DNA from: an uncultured virus (IMG/VR IMGVR_UViG_3300025613_000003)
Taxonomy: Duplodnaviria > Heunggongvirae > Uroviricota > Caudoviricetes
Virus record (IMG/VR): IMGVR_UViG_3300025613_000003
DNA length: 20,000 bases
Direction: 5' to 3' (one strand)
A model generated the notes under the pieces. It was not told where the DNA came from, searched no databases, and saw nothing but the letters and a program-made list of their open reading frames with translations. A program made the position numbers and the translations under genes. Of this stretch, positions 2,501 through 20,000 are shown piece after piece; positions within the stretch are counted from its first letter, which is position 1, and each line of letters starts with the position of its first letter.

Positions 2501-3202
2501 GTGATTACCAGCGTCCTCGACACGGTTCTGGAATGGGCGGAGCGATATAAGCCCATAGCCCTGAGCCTTGGCGGCGTCAGCACATTCGTGTTGACGGCGT
2601 ACAAGATGAGGCGAAAGCTAAGGATTCTGTATAATCGAAAAGTCGTGACCATGTTCAATCGCATCACGGGCAGAACCGCGAATAAACAATACCTCGATGA
2701 CGCTATTTCGAGGCTTGAGTTGCTGCATCAAAAGCAGAACCAGGCCATGCAGGAGCAGATCAAGGTCATTGCCTCCGAGGTAAAACAGGTCAAGTACCAG
2801 CTCACGCCCAATGGCGGGGGCAATTTCTTTGGCAAGATCGAGCGCGTAGAGCAGGAGGTGAGAGAGATCAGGGGTCACCAAATGGCAAGGGAGGATCTTC
2901 AGCCCGACCCCGTCATATACATGGACCTGACCGGGTCGGTACAGCATGTGAATTTGCGGTGGATGCACATCACGGGCCGGGCCATGCACGAACACCGCAA
3001 CGATGGCTGGCTAAACAGCATCCACGAAGACGATGTGCAATACCTGAGCGACCGCATAAGCGAGAGCTGCAGGGGCAAGCGCAACATCATCACCCAGCGT
3101 CCGTTCCGGGTCATTAACAACGAGGGCGATGTCGTTGGCAGCTACAACTTGGAGGCGATCAGAACCGAAAACAACTACTATGGCGTCCTTCGACAGGTTT
3201 AA
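2501..3202 (+). CDS. membrane-anchored coiled-coil protein with C-terminal PAS domain (holin-region gene)
   Basis: N-terminal hydrophobic helix, coiled coil and LTPNGGG motif, then a PAS signature (VIYMDLTGSVQHVNLRWMHITG...GWLNSIHEDD...PFRVINNEG). GTG start. Confidence 0.7.
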   Translation: MITSVLDTVLEWAERYKPIALSLGGVSTFVLTAYKMRRKLRILYNRKVVTMFNRITGRTANKQYLDDAISRLELLHQKQNQAMQEQIKVIASEVKQVKYQLTPNGGGNFFGKIERVEQEVREIRGHQMAREDLQPDPVIYMDLTGSVQHVNLRWMHITGRAMHEHRNDGWLNSIHEDDVQYLSDRISESCRGKRNIITQRPFRVINNEGDVVGSYNLEAIRTENNYYGVLRQV

Positions 3203-5457: not shown

Positions 5458-5667
5458 ATGTCCGACACTCAAAACCCGATGGAACCATTTCTCACCGGCC
5501 TTTTTGTCGGTGCCGTGGCGGGAATAGCGTTACGGTCATGGCTCCTGTACCGTCAGAACAATCTGCCCCGGCTCAGGCGAAAGCTACGGGAAGCCGTTGA
5601 ACGGGAAGATTACGAACGCGCCGCCATATTGCGGGATCGCATCAACGAGGTTTTGAATCGTAAGTGA
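5458..5667 (+). CDS. small TM protein with UVR (UvrB/UvrC-motif) helical hairpin
   Basis: A TM helix followed by LRRKLREAVEREDYERAAILRDRI, the canonical UVR motif. Confidence 0.75.
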   Translation: MSDTQNPMEPFLTGLFVGAVAGIALRSWLLYRQNNLPRLRRKLREAVEREDYERAAILRDRINEVLNRK

Positions 5668-6386
5668 TGGCAAAGGCTCGGAAGTCGGGAAAGAAACGGC
5701 CTGTGATGAAATCCAAGCCGTCACGCCGCCGCCGCGGCTCCGCACCCAACCCTGTGCCAAAACCGGCCAAGCCAAGGCGTAAACAAAAGCTACTGCCCTT
5801 TTTAAAGAAGGACGGGTCACCGAGGAAGAACACGGTGGTGACGCCGTATCTGACCAAGACCGGGCAACTCAACCGCAGATTCAAATACCCGGAAGGGGTT
5901 AAGACCCCGCTTGATCTTTACAAACGCCTGAGTTTTCCCAAGGTGGGCAAGCTCGGCCTTGGCGCAATCAAGGGCAAGCCCTGGCTGAACCGTGACGGTA
6001 GCGTAAGGAAGGGGACGCGGATATCGAAATGGCTGACCAAGACGGGTAAGATCCGCAAGAACCGGAAACTTCCCGCCGGGGTAAAAACCGTGAAGGGGCT
6101 GTATTCCTACCTTCAGAAAAAGAACTTCAAACCAAGTCAGGCCCGGAAATCAGGCCGGGCCGTATCGTTTTCCAACTCAATGTTTGTCTGGATTTTCAAG
6201 GAGTACGTTACGAAAAACTTCAAAAAATGGGGCAAGGTCTATATGGGCGGCAAACAAATAAGTTTTGAGAGATGGAACCTTTACGGTGATGACTACGTAC
6301 AACGAATTACCGACCCCAACGATAGCCCACCCTCGGTTTATTACGAGGTTGTGAGGTTGGATGACTACCGGTACCTCTTTTTCTAA
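5667..6386 (+). CDS. highly basic protein with an internal ~45-aa duplication, putative DNA-binding protein
   Basis: K/R-rich. PFLKKDGSPRKNT..YLTKTG..KYPEGVKT..LY recurs 61 aa later as PWLNRDGSVRKGT..WLTKTG..KLPAGVKT..LY. The C-terminus is aromatic and acidic. Confidence 0.75.
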   Translation: MAKARKSGKKRPVMKSKPSRRRRGSAPNPVPKPAKPRRKQKLLPFLKKDGSPRKNTVVTPYLTKTGQLNRRFKYPEGVKTPLDLYKRLSFPKVGKLGLGAIKGKPWLNRDGSVRKGTRISKWLTKTGKIRKNRKLPAGVKTVKGLYSYLQKKNFKPSQARKSGRAVSFSNSMFVWIFKEYVTKNFKKWGKVYMGGKQISFERWNLYGDDYVQRITDPNDSPPSVYYEVVRLDDYRYLFF

Positions 6387-6529: not shown

Positions 6530-6629
6530 ACCGCTAACGGTTCGGGGCTTTGCGTAGTAGCCCTTAGTAAAAACTTAAAATTAACCACGACACTTGATAG
6601 GGCTATTACGCAAAACCCTTGTTAGCGGT
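6530..6629 (+). repeat. attC-like site 1 (imperfect hairpin)
   Basis: ACCGCTAAC (6530-6538) pairs with GTTAGCGGT (6621-6629). Inner arms are TTTGCGTAGTAGCCCT / AGGGCTATTACGCAAA. Confidence 0.75.
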
Positions 6630-6665
6630 TCGTGCCAGTCGAGTAACCAATTAAAAAACGATACA

Positions 6666-6920
6666 ATGGCAAATCAAACAGTAGGACTTAGTTACGGGGT
6701 GTTGTCCGACCCATTAGACAAGCAACTTGACAAACAAGGCTTGAAGTATGACAAAAAGAAGATAGCACAATTTGAGGCAGAACGTGAAGCTGTAAATACT
6801 TTGCGTTTTGGTAGTGGATTGCTAACGGATAGCATGGTAGATAAAATTCTGCCGAAACTCCATAAGAAAATCATTGCTCATGTTGCAAAGGCTAATGGTC
6901 AGTCGGTTGTCAAGGCATGA
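6666..6920 (+). CDS. cassette 1 hypothetical protein (84 aa)
   Basis: ATG 6666 follows an A-rich leader. The TGA stop overlaps the ACCGCTAAC box of the next attC-like site. Confidence 0.75.
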   Translation: MANQTVGLSYGVLSDPLDKQLDKQGLKYDKKKIAQFEAEREAVNTLRFGSGLLTDSMVDKILPKLHKKIIAHVAKANGQSVVKA

Positions 6921-7016
6921 CCGCTAACGGTTTGTGTATGAGCAGTGGCACTTGTACACACTTTCAAATTAGCACTAACTTGTCTGTGCCATTGCTTATA
7001 CACGGTGTTATGTGCC
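6920..7016 (+). repeat. attC-like site 2
   Basis: ACCGCTAAC (6920-6928) to GTTATGTGCC (7007-7016). Inner arms are GTGTATGAGCAGTGGCAC / GTGCCATTGCTTATACAC. Confidence 0.75.
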
Positions 7017-7040
7017 GTTTTTATTCAATAATTTAGAAAT

Positions 7041-7583
7041 ATGAAGAAATATAAAACAATATTGATTGACCCACCTTGGGAATATGATGTACCTGTAAAA
7101 AGAAAAGATAGTAGAAAAGGCAGGGCTGAAAGAGCAGGTAAAACTATGCACCCACCTTATCCAATGATGAAAATGTCCGAAATTGAAAAAATGCCTATAA
7201 GTGAATTAGCTGATGACAATTGCCATTTGTGGCTTTGGACTACTAATAAATATTTGCCTGATGCAATACGACTTTGTGAATTGTGGGGGTTTAAATTTTT
7301 TCATTTGGTTACTTGGGTTAAGCCGAGTGGAATAGGGATGTGGTTTGTTCATAGGACACAACCTTTGATATTCGCATATAAAGGTAAAATGAACTTTCAA
7401 CGGAAATGCAATCCCAATGTATTATTTAGCGGAAATCCTAAACGGCATAGCGAAAAACCTGAATGTAGTTATGAACTTATTGAAGCTATTAGTTCAAGCC
7501 CCAAAATTGAATTATTTGCCCGTAGAGAACGTGAAAATTGGGATGTTTGGGGAAATGAAGTTGATAGCAGTGTCACTCTTTAA
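7041..7583 (+). CDS. MT-A70 family N6-adenine methyltransferase (cassette 2)
   Basis: ILIDPPW catalytic motif, plus HLWLWTT, WGF...TWVK, HSEKP and IELFAR...WDVWGNE. Confidence 0.92.
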   Translation: MKKYKTILIDPPWEYDVPVKRKDSRKGRAERAGKTMHPPYPMMKMSEIEKMPISELADDNCHLWLWTTNKYLPDAIRLCELWGFKFFHLVTWVKPSGIGMWFVHRTQPLIFAYKGKMNFQRKCNPNVLFSGNPKRHSEKPECSYELIEAISSSPKIELFARRERENWDVWGNEVDSSVTL

Positions 7584-7586
7584 AAT

Positions 7587-7722
7587 GGCACATAACGGTT
7601 TCGGGCTTGGCGAAGTTGCCGAACCGAAAAGCTAAATTGAAAAACAAAAGTTGAAATTATGGACGAAAGTTTAATTGAAAAACAGAACGGCAATTTTGCC
7701 AAACCCGTGTTAGGCGTAGTGC
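7587..7722 (+). repeat. attC-like site 3
   Basis: GGCACATAAC (7587-7596) to GTTAGGCG (7709-7716). Inner arms are CGGGCTTGGCGAAGTTGCCG / CGGCAATTTTGCCAAACCCG. Confidence 0.75.
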
Positions 7723-8729
7723 TTTCTTTATTCGATGGTATGAGTTGCGGACAAATTGCACTCAACAGAGCAGGTATTTCCTATGGCAAATATTATGCTT
7801 CGGAGATTGATAAACACGCCATCAAAGTAACACAACACAACTACCCAAACACTATACAACTTGGAAGTGTTACAGAAATTAAAGGCACGGATTTACCTAA
7901 AATTGATTTATTGATAGGCGGAAGCCCTTGCCAAGGATTTAGTTTCGCAGGAAAACAACTAAACTTTGAAGACCCACGAAGCAAACTATTTTTTGAGTTT
8001 GTTAGATTGTTGAAAGAAACAAAGCCTAAATACTTTTTGCTCGAAAACGTCAGGATGAAAAAAGAAAGCCAAGATGTTATTTCAAAATATTTAAGGGTTG
8101 AGCCAATTGAAATAAACTCAAACCTTGTATCTGCTCAAAACAGAAGGAGGCTTTACTGGACTAATATACCAAACATTGAACAGCCAAATGATAAAGGGAT
8201 TTTGTTAAAGGATATTATAGTTGATGGTGGGATTGATTGCCGAATGACAACCGAAGATAAAGCTTATGCCTTAACCGCATCATATAACGGTGCTGTTGCT
8301 TGGAATAGTATTGAAAAGAAGCAGCGGACAATGATATTAGATGCTGTGAATGGTAAAAAGGTACATATTGATTTATTTAAAGAAGCACCTTACACCTTTT
8401 ACGAAACAAGAACCAATGAAGGTAAAGAAATGAGGCGTAAAATTAGGATTGAAACAGGTAGGGATTCAACTCCAAGAAGCAAAGAATTTAAAATGTATTT
8501 ACCATTGAAAGAGCAAAAAGCAAATTGTCTTGTAACAGTAGAAAGCCCTTTGGATTTTATAGTAGATAAAAGTTGGAAATACAGAAAGCTATACCCGATT
8601 GAAATGGAGAGATTACAAACTGTACCGGATGGATATACTAAAACAGCAAGCGATACACAAGCAAGACGAATGCTTGGTAATGGATGGACTGTTGATGTCA
8701 TCGCTCATATTTTCGGAGGGATGTCTTAG
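7659..8729 (+). CDS. DNA (cytosine-5)-methyltransferase (cassette 3)
   Basis: Motif I VLSLFDGMSCG, motif IV GGSPCQGFS, motif VI LLENV, motif VIII QNRRRLYW, then ERLQTVPDGY and motif X LGNGW. Confidence 0.95.
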   Translation: MDESLIEKQNGNFAKPVLGVVLSLFDGMSCGQIALNRAGISYGKYYASEIDKHAIKVTQHNYPNTIQLGSVTEIKGTDLPKIDLLIGGSPCQGFSFAGKQLNFEDPRSKLFFEFVRLLKETKPKYFLLENVRMKKESQDVISKYLRVEPIEINSNLVSAQNRRRLYWTNIPNIEQPNDKGILLKDIIVDGGIDCRMTTEDKAYALTASYNGAVAWNSIEKKQRTMILDAVNGKKVHIDLFKEAPYTFYETRTNEGKEMRRKIRIETGRDSTPRSKEFKMYLPLKEQKANCLVTVESPLDFIVDKSWKYRKLYPIEMERLQTVPDGYTKTASDTQARRMLGNGWTVDVIAHIFGGMS

Positions 8730-8775
8730 CATTACGCCTAACTACCAAATTGGCGAAACTTTACTTCGCCAACTA
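8728..8775 (+). repeat. truncated/degenerate attC-like site 4
   Basis: AGCATTACGCCTAAC at the MTase stop is followed only by a short hairpin, TTGGCGAA-N7-TTCGCCAA. No matching GTT box was seen. Confidence 0.5.
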
Positions 8776-8834: not shown

Positions 8835-9065
8835 ATGTCAACCATAGAATGCCCATCTATTGAAAAGCCTGTGAGGCAATTTTTATGCTACGTATTGCGA
8901 ACCGCAAGTAATATGCGCTATCAAGAATTTACAGGTGAATGGAAGCCAGTTCAACCCGAAAGATGGGAGAAATGGAATGTGCTTGCGGAAACAAAAGAGG
9001 GCGCAAGAAAAATTGCTAAATACCACTTTTATCAATCAAAAGGTGACAACATATATATTAAATAA
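8835..9065 (+). CDS. hypothetical protein (76 aa)
   Basis: ORF with an A-rich leader that fills the gap in a + strand gene run. Confidence 0.6.
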   Translation: MSTIECPSIEKPVRQFLCYVLRTASNMRYQEFTGEWKPVQPERWEKWNVLAETKEGARKIAKYHFYQSKGDNIYIK

Positions 9066-9096: not shown

Positions 9097-9480
9097 ATGA
9101 TAGCCCCCTACTCAAAGGAAGTATTTAAGGCCAAGATTCAGGCCGGAATTAAGATCCATACCATTCGCAAGGACGTGAGTAAGCGATGGCGACCCGGCAT
9201 GGTGATTGATCACTGGATGCACAACCCGCGTCATACCGCAAAGAACCCGCACAGGTTCGCAACCGGAACCGTTACTGCTGTGCAGGACATTGAAATCGAC
9301 TACGTCAACAAGCGGGTAATGGTTGAGGGCAGGATTTTATTTCCCGAAGAAATTAAGGAACTTGCGATAGCGGACGGGTTCGACAACATCAGGCAGTTTT
9401 ATCTCTGGTTTTACCAGGCCGATACCCCGTTTGAACCCTGGCGAGGGAGATTGATTCATTGGACAAGTAAGCGATACTGA
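9097..9480 (+). CDS. ASCH/PUA-like domain protein
   Basis: FKAKIQAGIKIHTIR (G.K..TIR) and the C-terminal LAIADGF..F..WF pattern are typical of phage ASCH proteins. Confidence 0.7.
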   Translation: MIAPYSKEVFKAKIQAGIKIHTIRKDVSKRWRPGMVIDHWMHNPRHTAKNPHRFATGTVTAVQDIEIDYVNKRVMVEGRILFPEEIKELAIADGFDNIRQFYLWFYQADTPFEPWRGRLIHWTSKRY

Positions 9481-9482
9481 TC

Positions 9483-10319
9483 ATGGCCAACACATACGTA
9501 ACCTCCGGTAAGGCAGGCCAAAAAGCAAGGGCGAACGTGGAAGAAATCATTACCGTCCTGCGACCCTGTATAGTAACCTATACCCACAACTCTACCCATA
9601 TCAAGACCGATATGGGCGACATGATGTTCACCAACGGCGGGGGCAAATTAAATCTTCGTGAATTGGTATTTATTAAAAGATTCCGCGAGCATTACGTCAG
9701 GGTCGGAAAGGGACTGGACTACGACCTTGGCTATGCCAAGGTGAAGCCCGTGTATCAAAAATTCAATCCATGGAAAGGATTGGCAAAGGACGTGGTGGAG
9801 ATCGACATTCGCCGCGCCTATCCCACGGCGGGAAGGATACTCGGCATAGTCAATGACCAATTCTACGAGGAGGGGATTAAGTTCCCCAAGCAAACCTTTC
9901 TGATTGCGATAGGGAGCCTGAACCGCAAACGCAAAACCATTGCCGTGGATCAGACCGGGCGGCGTAAAATTTTGCGGGAGGAAAAGCCTATGCCATACAT
10001 GAGTAATTTGTGGAGCAGCATCGTGGGCCACATCGATTTCGTCATGCAGAAAGCCTGGGCATTGGCCGGTGCGGACGCCCGGTTTTATTGGTGCGATGCC
10101 ATTTTTGTCAGGAGGAGATCGGCGAGGAAGATACAGGAATTGCTTTTGCAATACGGTTTTGAAAGCAGGGTGGTGACGTTGAAAAAGTTGGAGTGGGGTC
10201 CTGAGCATATTCTCGCCATCAACGAATACGGCGACAAAAAGACCTATTGCTATCCCCAGACCAAGATTGTAAATTATGAGAATCTCAATGAAGTAGCACG
10301 AAAATTCATCAGGAAATGA
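9483..10319 (+). CDS. minimal family-B DNA polymerase-like protein (palm/fingers only), copy 1
   Basis: Motif A-like VVEIDIRRAYP, motif B-like KQTFLIAIGSL and motif C-like FYWCDAIF. At 278 aa it shows no recognisable exonuclease motifs. Confidence 0.65.
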   Translation: MANTYVTSGKAGQKARANVEEIITVLRPCIVTYTHNSTHIKTDMGDMMFTNGGGKLNLRELVFIKRFREHYVRVGKGLDYDLGYAKVKPVYQKFNPWKGLAKDVVEIDIRRAYPTAGRILGIVNDQFYEEGIKFPKQTFLIAIGSLNRKRKTIAVDQTGRRKILREEKPMPYMSNLWSSIVGHIDFVMQKAWALAGADARFYWCDAIFVRRRSARKIQELLLQYGFESRVVTLKKLEWGPEHILAINEYGDKKTYCYPQTKIVNYENLNEVARKFIRK

Positions 10320-14127: not shown

Positions 14128-14722
14128 TGTTACTATTGCTTGTCAGGGTTCGATTTACGCAACTGTTACTGTTTATTATGATGGCTTGGTCAATCCCCAA
14201 TAAAGTTACCATGGACTATAATGATTCGATTACCTTCTTTGATACTCATTGTATCCGAATGATCTAACTTTGGTAGTATGTTACTATGATATTAAATGAT
14301 TCGATTCAGGAGTTTGTTACTGTACTTGACAAATGCCTCAATCTATTGGGCTGATACTGAATTGCTCTTCACGGTTCAATCAGATGTGCTGTTACTTTTT
14401 TTCTGTATGATTCAATACTCTGCAATGCTACAATCGGCAGTTATGATTCATTTTGTTTATTTGGTACTGTTGCCCAGAATGATTCAATACAACTAATGGT
14501 TACTATTCCATATTATGATTCAATACGTGTAAATGTTACTGTTCCATTTCACGATTCAATTGCTTTACTTGATACGATTGTTAACCAAGTTTCAATTCTT
14601 GCATTTGTTACTTTTCAGAAAACTGATTCAATTATCCCATTTGATACTATTACCAGTTGCGATTCAATTCCTTTTTTTGTTACGCTTAGGAACGGTGATT
14701 CGATTTTTTCTAATGGTACAAC
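14128..14722 (-). repeat. TIGR-like tandem interspaced guide RNA array: 16 units of ~36 nt plus one partial unit, two 9-nt repeats alternating with two 9-nt variable spacers
   Basis: The + strand consensus is TGTTACTRT-N9-TGATTCAAT-N9. Units start at 14128, 14164, 14204, 14240, 14279, 14315, 14352, 14390, 14426, 14462, 14498, 14534, 14570, 14606, 14642, 14678 and (partial) 14714. Strand is inferred from the flanking genes. Confidence 0.88.
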
Positions 14723-14747: not shown

Positions 14748-15080
14748 TCAGTCCCCCAAGATCATGGATATGAATTCCTCGCTTGCGCCATCGTCACGAA
14801 GATACTTTTTCAGCGCGGCCAAATCTTCATCATCGGGCTTTTCGTCAAAACGGCCTGCAATAACCGCGTTCCGAAGCCATGACAGCTCGGGGAAGGGAGC
14901 CAGATCATTGGCGAGGTCGAGTTTGGGCGTAACCGAAGTTTCGGCCTTGAAGTCGTGATATTCATTGGTCTTGGCCCGGATCAGGATCAGTTTGTAACGG
15001 TTGGCATTTACGCCTTTTCGCATACACCAGCCGATGAGGATTCTGACCAGGTCTTGATCGGTACTCAGTCTTGGTTTCAT
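14748..15080 (-). CDS. hypothetical protein (110 aa) between the Nop-domain gene and the array
   Basis: ATGA overlap with the stop of 15077..16144. It ends about 25 nt before the array. Confidence 0.75.
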   Translation of the reverse strand: MKPRLSTDQDLVRILIGWCMRKGVNANRYKLILIRAKTNEYHDFKAETSVTPKLDLANDLAPFPELSWLRNAVIAGRFDEKPDDEDLAALKKYLRDDGASEEFISMILGD

Positions 15081-16144
15081 GATAGGAAATCGGGTTTGTT
15101 CGGGATGTGGATCATATCGACATGGCCGAGGTGGGCGATTGGGAACGGTGCCGGAGCCGGTTTGCGGTAATGGTATTCGTACATGACTTGGTGGACGTGG
15201 CTCAGAAAGATCTTGACGGCGAAACGCTTTGCCATGGCGTGAACATGGCCTTGTGGCAGTTTCCCCGCCGCAAGGGCTTTGTAGCTTTCCGTGGCCTTGT
15301 CGAATAGGGGCAGCAAGGCATCTGCTCGATCAGCGTAATCGCCGTTTTGGTTGCGCTGAAGGTAGTATTCCTTTTTGGCCAGGTAGAGGTGGCCGTACAG
15401 GCAATGCCTGTGTCCTGATCGTTTTACGAATGATTCCCCCGCCTTCCAGCACAGGACCTTGAGCGCGGGATTCCATGGCGTCATGGAAAGCGCCTTTTTC
15501 AGGTTGGATATGGTGTAAATCTTGGAATCAGGCAAGTCCGGGTTTTCGTTCGGGTTGGCGATATGCACCAGCATGGCGCGAATGTTCTCGGCGTTGCGGT
15601 TGCACTTGGCGGCGGCGGCGGCGAGCAAGGACTCGAAATTGACGCGGTCGCCACGGCCTCCGATTTCGTCCGCCACCTCCTTTACCAGGGCTTCGGCCTT
15701 GACCTTTCCGAGCCATTTCACGTTCGGGTTAAGTCCGGCATAACTCCAGAAATGACCGGCGGTGGGGGCCTTGGTAATGTCCAGGTAACCGATCATGCCG
15801 GCGGCAATTACGGGACCGATCCCGACCAGGCCCTTCATCCATCGCCCTACGGGATGGAAGTCGCTGTAAACGTCCAGCGCCTTCTTCATGGCGGTTTCGC
15901 ATCGCCGATCCGTTTCCATGGCCCAGGCAAAGATGGCATTGGGCTGATCCGCTTTTTCGGCCTGACCGAACTGCATGTCGCTACGTTTACGGTCGTCCTG
16001 GTATTGGTAGTAGCGATTGACGCAGTACAGAACCTCGGCCTCGGTCATGTTCTGAGCCGCCTTGGCCACGTCTTTTGGCAGGAGGATTTTAAACTCGGTG
16101 GCCTCGGCTGATTCCACGACTTCATGGGTTGGTTTAGATTTCAT
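15077..16144 (-). CDS. tasA: Nop-domain / IS110-related RNA-binding protein without nuclease domain (TasA-like)
   Basis: Coiled coil (YYQYQDDRKRSD), then WMKGLVGIGPVIAAGMI...FWSYAGLNP, PWNPALK..WKAGESFVK, Y..Y..KK and HVHAMAKRFAVKIFLSH. There is no N-terminal DEDD/RuvC and no HNH. It is adjacent to the 36-nt array. Confidence 0.8.
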   Translation of the reverse strand: MKSKPTHEVVESAEATEFKILLPKDVAKAAQNMTEAEVLYCVNRYYQYQDDRKRSDMQFGQAEKADQPNAIFAWAMETDRRCETAMKKALDVYSDFHPVGRWMKGLVGIGPVIAAGMIGYLDITKAPTAGHFWSYAGLNPNVKWLGKVKAEALVKEVADEIGGRGDRVNFESLLAAAAAKCNRNAENIRAMLVHIANPNENPDLPDSKIYTISNLKKALSMTPWNPALKVLCWKAGESFVKRSGHRHCLYGHLYLAKKEYYLQRNQNGDYADRADALLPLFDKATESYKALAAGKLPQGHVHAMAKRFAVKIFLSHVHQVMYEYHYRKPAPAPFPIAHLGHVDMIHIPNKPDFLS

Positions 16145-18358: not shown

Positions 18359-19186
18359 TTATTTCCCCCTCTTTTTAGCCAAAAAGGGGAAATAGCGCAG
18401 ATTGGTCGTGACGAGATCGCCGTCAACCATCTGCTTGCGCTCCTTTCCCTCAACAATGATCGTATTGGGCTGAATTGTTATGGACCTCACCGGTTCCTGG
18501 CTGAATTCATACCCAAGGCGTCTGAAAGCCTTTTTTACCGCCCCGGCAGCGCTTTTTTTACAGAACATGGCATCAACCCAAAAGAACATGAAGGCGTCCC
18601 CTATGGAGCTGGAAACCTCGTTCATGTGATCCCCGACCTGCTTGCAGATAATATCCCAAAGATGCTCAGTGAGTGGGCTGCAAATTTCCGGCCTCCTGAT
18701 CTCTTTCTTACCGTCAAACTCAATGACCGTTGTCTTTTTCGCAAGCGACCCCAGGGCAGCTAATCGCGACATTTTAGAAACAAAATTCCCCTTTTCAAAC
18801 AAGTCCTTTGGCAGTAGGCCGATTTGGTAAGCCGTATTCCAATACGCAGCCTTCAGATCGATTTCAACACAGTCGTTAAATGCGGAGCCTTCCCGTAGCA
18901 GTTTCCGGTTGTATTTGAAGTAAACAATGGATTGATGGAATCGCTTGCGATCCCTAGCCGGCGGGAAGTTTTGATAAAGGCCGTCTTTGATAATCCGGTC
19001 CTTCACGGATCGGATAAATGTTAGTTCATTGACGGGGAACTGGCTTTCACGATTTCGATATGATCCGTGTTTTGAGGAAATGCTAACGGATTGGTTCGTG
19101 ACCCGATATACAAACGGTATCCGATTCTTTTTCCAAGACCGGATCACGCCCAGGACCTTCTTGTGTGGTATGCGGACCTCTTTCAT
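18359..19186 (-). CDS. minimal family-B DNA polymerase-like protein, copy 2 (275 aa)
   Basis: CVEIDLKAAYW, KMSRLAALGSL and FFWVDAMF are colinear with 9483..10319. ATG 19186 overlaps the upstream stop (ATGA). Confidence 0.65.
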   Translation of the reverse strand: MKEVRIPHKKVLGVIRSWKKNRIPFVYRVTNQSVSISSKHGSYRNRESQFPVNELTFIRSVKDRIIKDGLYQNFPPARDRKRFHQSIVYFKYNRKLLREGSAFNDCVEIDLKAAYWNTAYQIGLLPKDLFEKGNFVSKMSRLAALGSLAKKTTVIEFDGKKEIRRPEICSPLTEHLWDIICKQVGDHMNEVSSSIGDAFMFFWVDAMFCKKSAAGAVKKAFRRLGYEFSQEPVRSITIQPNTIIVEGKERKQMVDGDLVTTNLRYFPFLAKKRGK

Positions 19187-19983
19187 TGTGCCGAAGAATA
19201 TCGAACGGAGTTGTTCTTGAAGTACCGATAAACGAACGGGGTACCGACACCACCACCCTTTATGGTGATCCAAAACTCGCTTGCCGCCGCCCTGATCTCC
19301 ATTTCGTGAGAGGATGAATACCTGGAGCCGTTGATAACGAAGAATTGATACGTACCCGATTTAAGGTCGTTGTCAAGTTGGGTAATGGCTTGCCAAATCG
19401 TGTAAGGGTTGGCAGGATCCTCGATATAACCGCTACGATCCGGGTCGGTATCTGGTTCGTATTCGTCAATATCAACGTCCTCCTGCTCCGGTGGATTACC
19501 GGATGCCCGATTAAGGCCGTCCAATTCAAATTCACGTTTCAGTTGTTGATAGCGTAACCGCTCGACCTCCTTCCAATCCTTGTTTTCCTCGGCCTTATCA
19601 ATCTTCTTTTTTACTTGTGCGATTTTAGATCGCACCTTTCTTTTCTCCTGGCGCACAACATCTGAAAACTTGATAATCGTATTCAGCCGTACACGCTTTT
19701 CCTTTAGGGACGTAATTAAATCCGAAGTAGAATCTCGATACTGGTTCAGCAGTTTCCGAGCCTTGCCCTTTTGGTATTTATTCGGAGCCTCGTCCACTTT
19801 CTTGCGAAGCCGATACTCCTTGGATCGTATGCGACTGATTTCTTTTTGAACTGAAGTCCTGACCTTTCGAGGCTGCTTGACCGGCTTATCGAAATATGAT
19901 TGCGCCTCCGCTACCTTTCGGATGATGGCGGCGCCGCTTGTGGATGACGGAGGCAATGACCGCCCCCTTTTCTTCTTAGCCAT
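19183..19983 (-). CDS. basic coiled-coil protein with acidic linker, coupled to mini-PolB copy 2
   Basis: K/R-rich N-terminal two-thirds, acidic EQEDVDIDEYEPDTD linker and aromatic C-terminal domain. ATGA coupling to the next gene. Confidence 0.75.
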   Translation of the reverse strand: MAKKKRGRSLPPSSTSGAAIIRKVAEAQSYFDKPVKQPRKVRTSVQKEISRIRSKEYRLRKKVDEAPNKYQKGKARKLLNQYRDSTSDLITSLKEKRVRLNTIIKFSDVVRQEKRKVRSKIAQVKKKIDKAEENKDWKEVERLRYQQLKREFELDGLNRASGNPPEQEDVDIDEYEPDTDPDRSGYIEDPANPYTIWQAITQLDNDLKSGTYQFFVINGSRYSSSHEMEIRAAASEFWITIKGGGVGTPFVYRYFKNNSVRYSSAQ

Positions 19984-20000
19984 GTTGAATAAGATTGAGT

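Follow-up and report, generated by a model that had tools for sequence, protein, structure and literature searches.

A conserved gene pair of a basic protein and a mini family B DNA polymerase lies near the genome ends of a group of uncultured viruses

Introduction

Could a family B DNA polymerase (PolB) of 275 residues and the basic protein encoded just upstream of it serve the ends of a viral genome, and why should one genome carry such a pair twice? The question is raised by a 20,000-nucleotide stretch of DNA (the window) from the uncultured virus IMGVR_UViG_3300025613_000003, which forms the final 20 kb of a viral contig of 71,460 bp, rated 50% complete. An original prediction, made from the DNA letters alone, held that a K/R-rich gene and a mini-PolB gene form a module that is apparently present twice, each polymerase having a cognate partner that might act as a primer or as a DNA tether. 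The two pairs were compared with each other, with their relatives in other viral records and with known systems of protein-primed replication.

Results

Two gene pairs in the window

Partner 2 (266 aa; 19183..19983, minus strand) is the first gene from the contig end, with its start 17 bases inside. Its stop TGA overlaps the start ATG of mini-PolB copy 2 (275 aa; 18359..19186, minus strand) as ATGA. The other pair is split. Partner 1 (239 aa, K/R-rich; 5667..6386, plus strand) lies 3.1 kb upstream of mini-PolB copy 1 (278 aa; 9483..10319, plus strand). A low-GC stretch at about 6.5-8.7 kb separates them, occupied by a methylase cassette (6530..8740, plus strand) with a small ORF and MT-A70 and C5 methylases, followed by two small genes on the plus strand that encode 76 aa (8835..9065) and 127 aa (9097..9480). 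The 127-aa product belongs to phrog_8581, a PHROG of unknown function. The methylase cassette is accessory and stands outside the polymerase-partner module. These ORFs, the ATGA overlap behind the 266-aa K/R-rich gene, and the low-GC island and two small genes between the 239-aa K/R-rich gene and copy 1 are all as the original prediction described them. Pfam, PHROG and PDB sequence searches found a family for 0/4 of the two polymerases and two partners.

Several other features of the window were recorded. The methylase cassette is strain-variable, since joints skipping 6533-8738, 7943-8739 and 7615-7694 were present in other sequencing runs, some of them short-sided. One contig from run X4 departs from the window at position 5548, a short way before partner 1, and stays unlike it for at least 255 bases; the break could be where module 1 was inserted, or the contig could belong to a different virus. 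An AT-rich array at 14129-14690 is made up of some 8-12 degenerate copies spaced 36 and 75 nt apart, with a GATTC core. It sits among small genes downstream of a gene for a 355-aa IS110/IS116-like recombinase (15077-16144, minus strand; PF02371, E 7e-5; phrog_4285, E 4e-31) in the terminal arm. In the lysis region, a 233-aa protein (2501-3202, plus strand) has an N-terminal hydrophobic segment, a coiled coil and a C-terminal PAS fold (PF08447, E 3e-5).

Predicted fold and motifs of mini-PolB copy 2

An AlphaFold model of copy 2, built from a 25-sequence alignment, had a pLDDT of 94. Foldseek returned family B polymerases for this model, the best query TM-score (0.58) being that of phi29. VIA-align placed five phi29 entries on top (Z 11.3, rmsd 5.3) and matched 266/275 residues of the model to phi29 residues 55-552, while RNA-primed PolBs aligned over about 160 residues with Z no higher than 10. 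The top matches from both programs were all PolBs. Copy 2 is thus predicted to have a PolB palm-fingers fold of the phi29 type. Because 275 residues span phi29 55-552, most of TPR1 and TPR2 are probably missing or short in the modeled protein.

The hallmarks of PolBs are the motif A Asp with the steric-gate Tyr, motif B as KxxxNxxYG, and the last Asp of motif C. Six residues were invariant in 52 sequences and were assigned to motif A (D110, Y115), to the motif B spacing (K138, G146) and to motif C (W203, D205). Some members of a sister clade have Phe at the steric-gate position. K138 and G146 are correctly spaced, with Leu in place of the motif B Asn and Leu or Ile in place of Tyr, and the first motif C Asp is substituted. 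With these changes in motifs B and C, catalytic activity is uncertain. Active PolBs that lack the first motif C Asp are reported in section 10 of PMC11071308.

Among the roughly 105 residues before motif A, the 52 sequences had no invariant or near-invariant acid, so the exonuclease has been lost. The PF03175 (DNA_pol_B_2) profile did not match copy 2, and a search of related records for protein-primed PolB (pPolB) gave no match either, its positive control also giving no signal. The Atlas lists one cluster with 10% PF03175 at a score of 0.90. The Atlas cluster that holds the copy 2 family has 1,311 members, 98% of them viral.

Mini-PolB copy 1

Copies 1 and 2 are homologous, as judged from 25% identity over 225 aa (E 3e-19). 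Copy 1 keeps the catalytic Asp positions (D108 and D205) and the Tyr of motif A, and 6 of the 8 strain differences that fell in it among the rows listed (40 of 193) were synonymous. In a quick tree of 63 sequences this paralogue formed a long branch, and its placement there is unsure. Scans of viral contigs confirmed no relatives of partner 1 or polymerase 1, and found no relative with both a partner-1-type and a polymerase-1-type gene.

The presence of two copies is not a family trait. Among 41 related records, each of the 20 positive ones had a single polymerase match. Pair 1 is most likely a second module, anciently diverged and still intact, that came from a related virus; it was more probably captured in this way than inherited as part of a two-ended design common to the family. 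Copy 1 lies 10.5 kb inside the right contig end and points outwards. The predicted duplication of the module thus holds for the genome, which has two homologous polymerases and likely homologous partner domains, but it does not extend to position, since copy 1 is internal and not terminal.

Partner proteins and their C-terminal domain

Partner 2 has 47 K/R among its first 150 residues, then an acidic stretch (151-200). Residues from about 186 to 266 form a confidently modeled C-terminal alpha/beta domain with the order helix, two strands, helix, two strands, in which Trp197 is near-invariant. No Ser, Thr or Tyr was invariant in 23 aligned partner rows. Position 248, in a Thr-Pro motif, was Thr in 15 and Ser in 1 of the 23, and Thr248 is the best candidate for a priming residue in partner 2. 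The counterpart candidate in partner 1 is Ser220, in Ser220-Pro. Partner 1 also has two internal LxxDGS...LTKTG...PxGVKT repeats.

BLASTP detected no similarity between the two partners (best E 1.2), and an HMM of partner 2 scored partner 1 only at E 5-12. Only profile-profile comparison linked them. An iterative search with a profile of the last 90 residues of partner 2 covered 1,422 ORFs from related loci. It collected 35 sequences, for the most part basic proteins encoded ahead of a polymerase, together with stand-alone domains encoded downstream, and scored partner 1 at E 5; the partner 1 profile was built with three homologues. Profile-profile comparison of the C-terminal domains gave probabilities of 85.5% and 80.7%, depending on direction (pairwise E 6e-6 and 1e-5). 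The score of 31.6 was not reached in any of 200 column shuffles (maximum 17.1), the reversed profile scored 8.2, and two decoy families both stayed below 1%. Because the score exceeds all shuffles and the decoys remain below 1%, the two domains are likely, though not certainly, homologous. The aligned segments are exactly those that had been singled out by eye as weakly alike.

The search of partner residues 152-266 against 48,161 chains had no known terminal-protein fold among the matches listed (best Z 4.4), and no viral structure model matched them (best E 0.15). The lack of a match does not show that the fold is new. Stand-alone paralogues of the C-terminal domain were found downstream of the polymerase in 7 loci (L002, L003, L013, L016, L026, L053 and L062). 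They match the partner domain at a profile-profile probability of 91.5%, and lack the basic region and mostly also the Thr-Pro.

Co-folding of polymerase 2 with partner residues 152-266 scored 0.54, the best control scoring 0.01. The runs agreed in at least 49% of contacts, with a partner pLDDT of at least 68. The co-fold mark was reached by 116/157 solved pairs and 2/215 mismatched pairs; marks at or below 0.60 comprise 18 solved pairs and both passing mismatches. Co-folding thus gives weak support to an interaction between polymerase 2 and partner 2.

Linkage of partner and polymerase across relatives

Scans for related loci gave 90 loci (in the metagenome scan, the best 80 of 380), which fell into 75 polymerase clusters at 90% identity. 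Sixteen of the 75 had less than 700 nt of upstream sequence, and the other 59 were assessable. A partner-type gene was present upstream in 46/59. In 34 clusters a gene matching a partner profile was adjacent, in 9 such a gene lay further upstream, in 3 an adjacent basic gene had no profile match, and 13 had none. The count is partly circular because the partner profiles were built from these same genes. With this reservation, the conserved linkage of mini-PolB to a basic gene that the original prediction expected is borne out. Most of the 13 partnerless clusters were of a marine type with an HNH gene upstream. In relatives of this type (L036, L045 and L057) the partner sits right at the end of the contig, 2-5 kb from the polymerase, and a split arrangement like that of copy 1 is therefore normal.

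A scan for an FtsK/A32-like ATPase gave 52 related viral loci, and 41 records were searched for the polymerase. It was found in 20/41, 19 of which form the sister clade. At least 18/19 sister-clade records have a basic gene of 286-351 aa within 600 nt upstream. The sister-clade partner had no detectable homology to partner 2 in the profile-profile comparison (probability 0.4%). Weak probabilities (4-19%) were obtained for the partner types of L004, L012 and L058. The L066-type partner showed no link to partner 2 (below 1%).

The polymerase was present in 1/401 Bacteroidota genomes, namely on a 9-kb contig of the metagenome-assembled genome (MAG) that had seeded the search, and is therefore not a usual cellular gene. 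With polymerase 2, a sister-clade polymerase and the ATPase as queries, tblastn returned nothing from 50,697 phage records. A full-text literature search, largely of openly available papers, found no description of the gene pair or the virus group. The duplicated module and the partner 2 family are new.

Position at genome ends

In 25/25 contigs of at least 12 kb, some of them near-duplicates, the polymerase faces inwards no more than 6 kb from the upstream end, against 7.1 expected. A control ATPase gene was within 6 kb of the upstream end in 3/46 (a hand count on a different collection mix), and this control ruled out a bias of the tool toward contig ends as the cause of the terminal location. 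All 20 polymerase matches in ATPase-bearing records, those of the sister clade included, also face inwards and lie 1-24 kb from the record end.

Contigs of the same virus from different runs stop at 19915, 19942, 19971, 19982 and 20000, and at 13, 27 and 44 bases beyond the window. Runs X1, X2 and X4 may be the source of the window itself; three other studies supplied X5, X9, X16 and X17. Runs that contained fewer than half of the words did not serve as evidence, and the low-depth run X10 was excluded from this count. The ragged stops make 19915..20000 a likely physical genome end. They fit such an end and do not prove it, and contig ends can instead mark low-complexity or repeat breaks.

Inverted terminal repeats were found in 3/41 related records. 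They are perfect (123 bp in G020, 123 bp in G028 and 653 bp in G022), and all three records have the polymerase. The first 99 bases of G003 repeat 61036-61134 in inverted orientation, an overlap that points to a collapsed 3.1-kb repeat; each end would then hold a partner, a polymerase and a gene for a stand-alone domain. The window's own contig, which is incomplete, had no terminal repeat. The polymerase was present in 8/13 records rated at least 90% complete. Of the five that lack it, one has direct repeats, the sole such record (n=1), and three have no end repeats and may for that reason be missing their arms.

Short tandem or strongly skewed tracts open several contigs just ahead of the partner, in the first 60 bases of L002, L005, L006, L017, L081, L003 and L048. 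They include (CTAC)n in L002, (CCAT)n in L005, (GCA)n in L017, and also (CT)n. The tracts vary from locus to locus, and none is present at the end of the window.

The virus group and its other replication genes

Four genes are near-universal in 11 related records of 54-102 kb: an FtsK/A32-like ATPase, a capsid-like beta protein with its paralogue, and a 264-aa protein. On the G000 contig these shared core genes are at 29293-30120, 37079-37867, 41320-42114 and 42062-42691. No terminase was found among the core genes of the related records, and Terminase_6N had no match in 5/5 records. The group looks like undescribed tailless phages. Its hosts are probably Bacteroidota, judging from one Flavobacterium MAG contig.

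PolA, PolB and protelomerase were found in 0/27 records, which may be incomplete, with positive controls. For the protelomerase profile PF16684, a marker of hairpin ends (0/27), the control signalled in 1/14.

A short motif, [FLMY]xxGGx[IVL], recurs in these genomes. It is repeated up to 14 times in giant proteins (14116-25999 on the G000 contig; also in G032, G039, G041, G012 and G022). It occurs 15-52 times per genome in 10/12 genomes and 6 and 8 times in the other two, while shuffled sequences gave 2-8. It also ends 16/17 aligned sister-clade partners. The motif may be a protease-cleavage or packaging signal.

Discussion

The two-gene module is real, conserved and end-located. What it does has to be read from its parts. 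The pair likely acts at the ends of linear genomes in which no other DNA polymerase was detected, either starting DNA synthesis there or capping it. More specifically, we give about an even chance to protein-primed initiation or patching of ends, analogous to Tap and Tpg, with the partner as primer and cap. The chemistry, which we infer throughout, would run as follows. The basic N-terminal region of the partner would grip the DNA end, and the exonuclease-less mini-PolB would likely bind the C-terminal domain. That domain would present a hydroxyl, to which mini-PolB would add the first few nucleotides. The enzyme's product would be no more than a short protein-linked primer or patch, like the one that Streptomyces Tap makes on Tpg, and host polymerases would copy the bulk of the 50-130 kb genome. 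The partner would serve as primer and cap at the ends of the linear genome. This reading draws on the coupled genes, the predicted fold, the conserved catalytic residues, the linkage and terminal position in relatives with their inverted repeats, and the lack of any other detected polymerase. Against it stand the absence of an invariant hydroxyl residue in the partner, the altered motifs B and C, the missing terminal repeat of the window's contig, the presence of the polymerase in only 20/41 ATPase-bearing records, the sister clade's looser position and seemingly unrelated partner, the chance that contig ends are assembly breaks, and the internal, outward-facing copy 1.

The partner may instead be a non-covalent DNA-binding tether, a processivity factor or a virion-core subunit that brings mini-PolB to the ends; we think this rather improbable, and hold the same doubtful view of its corollary that priming comes from elsewhere, by self-priming or from a fold-back end. 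The very basic N-terminus and the absence of an invariant Ser, Thr or Tyr suit such a role, as do the stand-alone domains without Thr-Pro downstream of the polymerase in 7 loci, and the terminal [FLMY]xxGGx[IVL] of 16/17 sister-clade partners hints at packaging or processing. But a terminal protein would also be expected to be packaged, the priming residue varies between Ser, Thr and Tyr among the known terminal proteins treated in PMC11071308, and the modeled enzyme most resembles protein-primed polymerases. The changed template-contacting positions of motif B, together with the short tandem or skewed tracts at the start of several related contigs (such as L002, L017 and L005), could point to a template-independent or slipping nucleotidyltransferase that protects ends by adding short repeats or modified nucleotides. 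This is unlikely, in that the tracts differ between loci and are absent from the window's end, and the perfect inverted repeats of three records suit templated copying.

Slightly more unlikely again is that mini-PolB is a dead PolB remnant, the pair an early operon in a terminal repeat with an anti-host or structural role, and the contig ends assembly breaks. A remnant would account for the lack of any Pfam, PHROG or PDB sequence match and for the changed motifs B and C, and the structure search did return other small divergent viral PolB folds. It fits poorly with an invariant set that falls exactly on the motif A Asp and Tyr, the motif B Lys and Gly and the motif C Asp, and the first motif C Asp is also lost in active PolBs described in PMC11071308. 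The least probable reading makes mini-PolB a full replicase that starts from a terminal protein and copies the whole genome, like the phi29 or PRD1 enzymes. It draws on mini-PolB being the only polymerase-like gene detected, and on the cultured 11-kb tectivirus phiKo, whose genome has inverted ends of 15 bp and encodes a 315-aa protein in which the three motifs follow the same order. Yet 275 residues without a conserved exonuclease would hardly be processive over 50-130 kb, and the phiKo sequence match is not significant (E 0.096).

Short protein-linked priming or patching can be set against several known systems. The pPolB and terminal-protein (TP) pairs of phi29, PRD1 and Bam35 resemble the module in that phi29 is the best fold match over nearly the full length, a basic gene lies directly upstream, and related genomes, which encode an FtsK/A32-like ATPase and gave no Terminase_6N match (5/5 records), are apparently linear, with inverted terminal repeats in three records. 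Unlike those polymerases, mini-PolB is about half the size, has no conserved exonuclease acids, has altered motifs B and C and has no PF03175 match. The partner domain matches no solved or viral fold, the genomes are 50-130 kb, and one genome here has two modules. Tap/Tpg and Tac/Tpc of Streptomyces are described in PMC4513846 as two-gene operons of linear replicons in which one protein deoxynucleotidylates the other, Tap/Tpg making a short 13-nt primer that other polymerases then extend. The likeness to these two-gene operons is a functional analogy only, and the module described here has a 275-aa PolB-fold enzyme, encoded downstream of its partner, in phages. Eukaryotic pPolB derivatives share a pPolB-derived palm without the exonuclease and without the first motif C Asp, and are predicted to be active. 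They differ in being fused to TP, vOTU and helicase domains and in keeping motif B and TPR1/TPR2, while mini-PolB is unfused and comes from phages.

The top viral structure match to copy 2 was a 315-aa protein (E 1.5e-8, TM 0.58), which we infer from its length only to be gene 21 of phiKo. This phage is a tectivirus of Thermus (PMC7515739). Gene 21 encodes a hypothetical protein of 315 aa that is similar in size, aligns across 130 columns with motifs A, B and C in the same order, and lies near the left end of a linear genome. It differs in its canonical motif B, and the sequence match is the non-significant one given above. No basic partner was found among 11 phiKo proteins. The gene is unannotated (L235, 1784-2731) and is a possible bench model for minimal PolBs.

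Taken together, we regard the module as a new variation on protein-primed end replication that falls outside the canonical pPolB and terminal-protein families. A fuller version is doubtful as a whole: an undescribed tailless lineage of 50-130 kb with the smallest known protein-priming polymerase, a terminal protein of new fold and, in this genome, two orthogonal cognate pairs, one for each end or one captured.

The mini-PolB family is large, and no cultured relative of it turned up among the 50,697 phage records. If the pair does prime DNA ends, it would be a protein-priming enzyme of 275 residues, half the size of the phi29 polymerase, and a phage version of the end-patching logic of Streptomyces built from a PolB. 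Its terminal protein would then have a new fold, and the system could become a compact means of linking proteins covalently to DNA. With its two diverged pairs, this genome has a specificity experiment built in.
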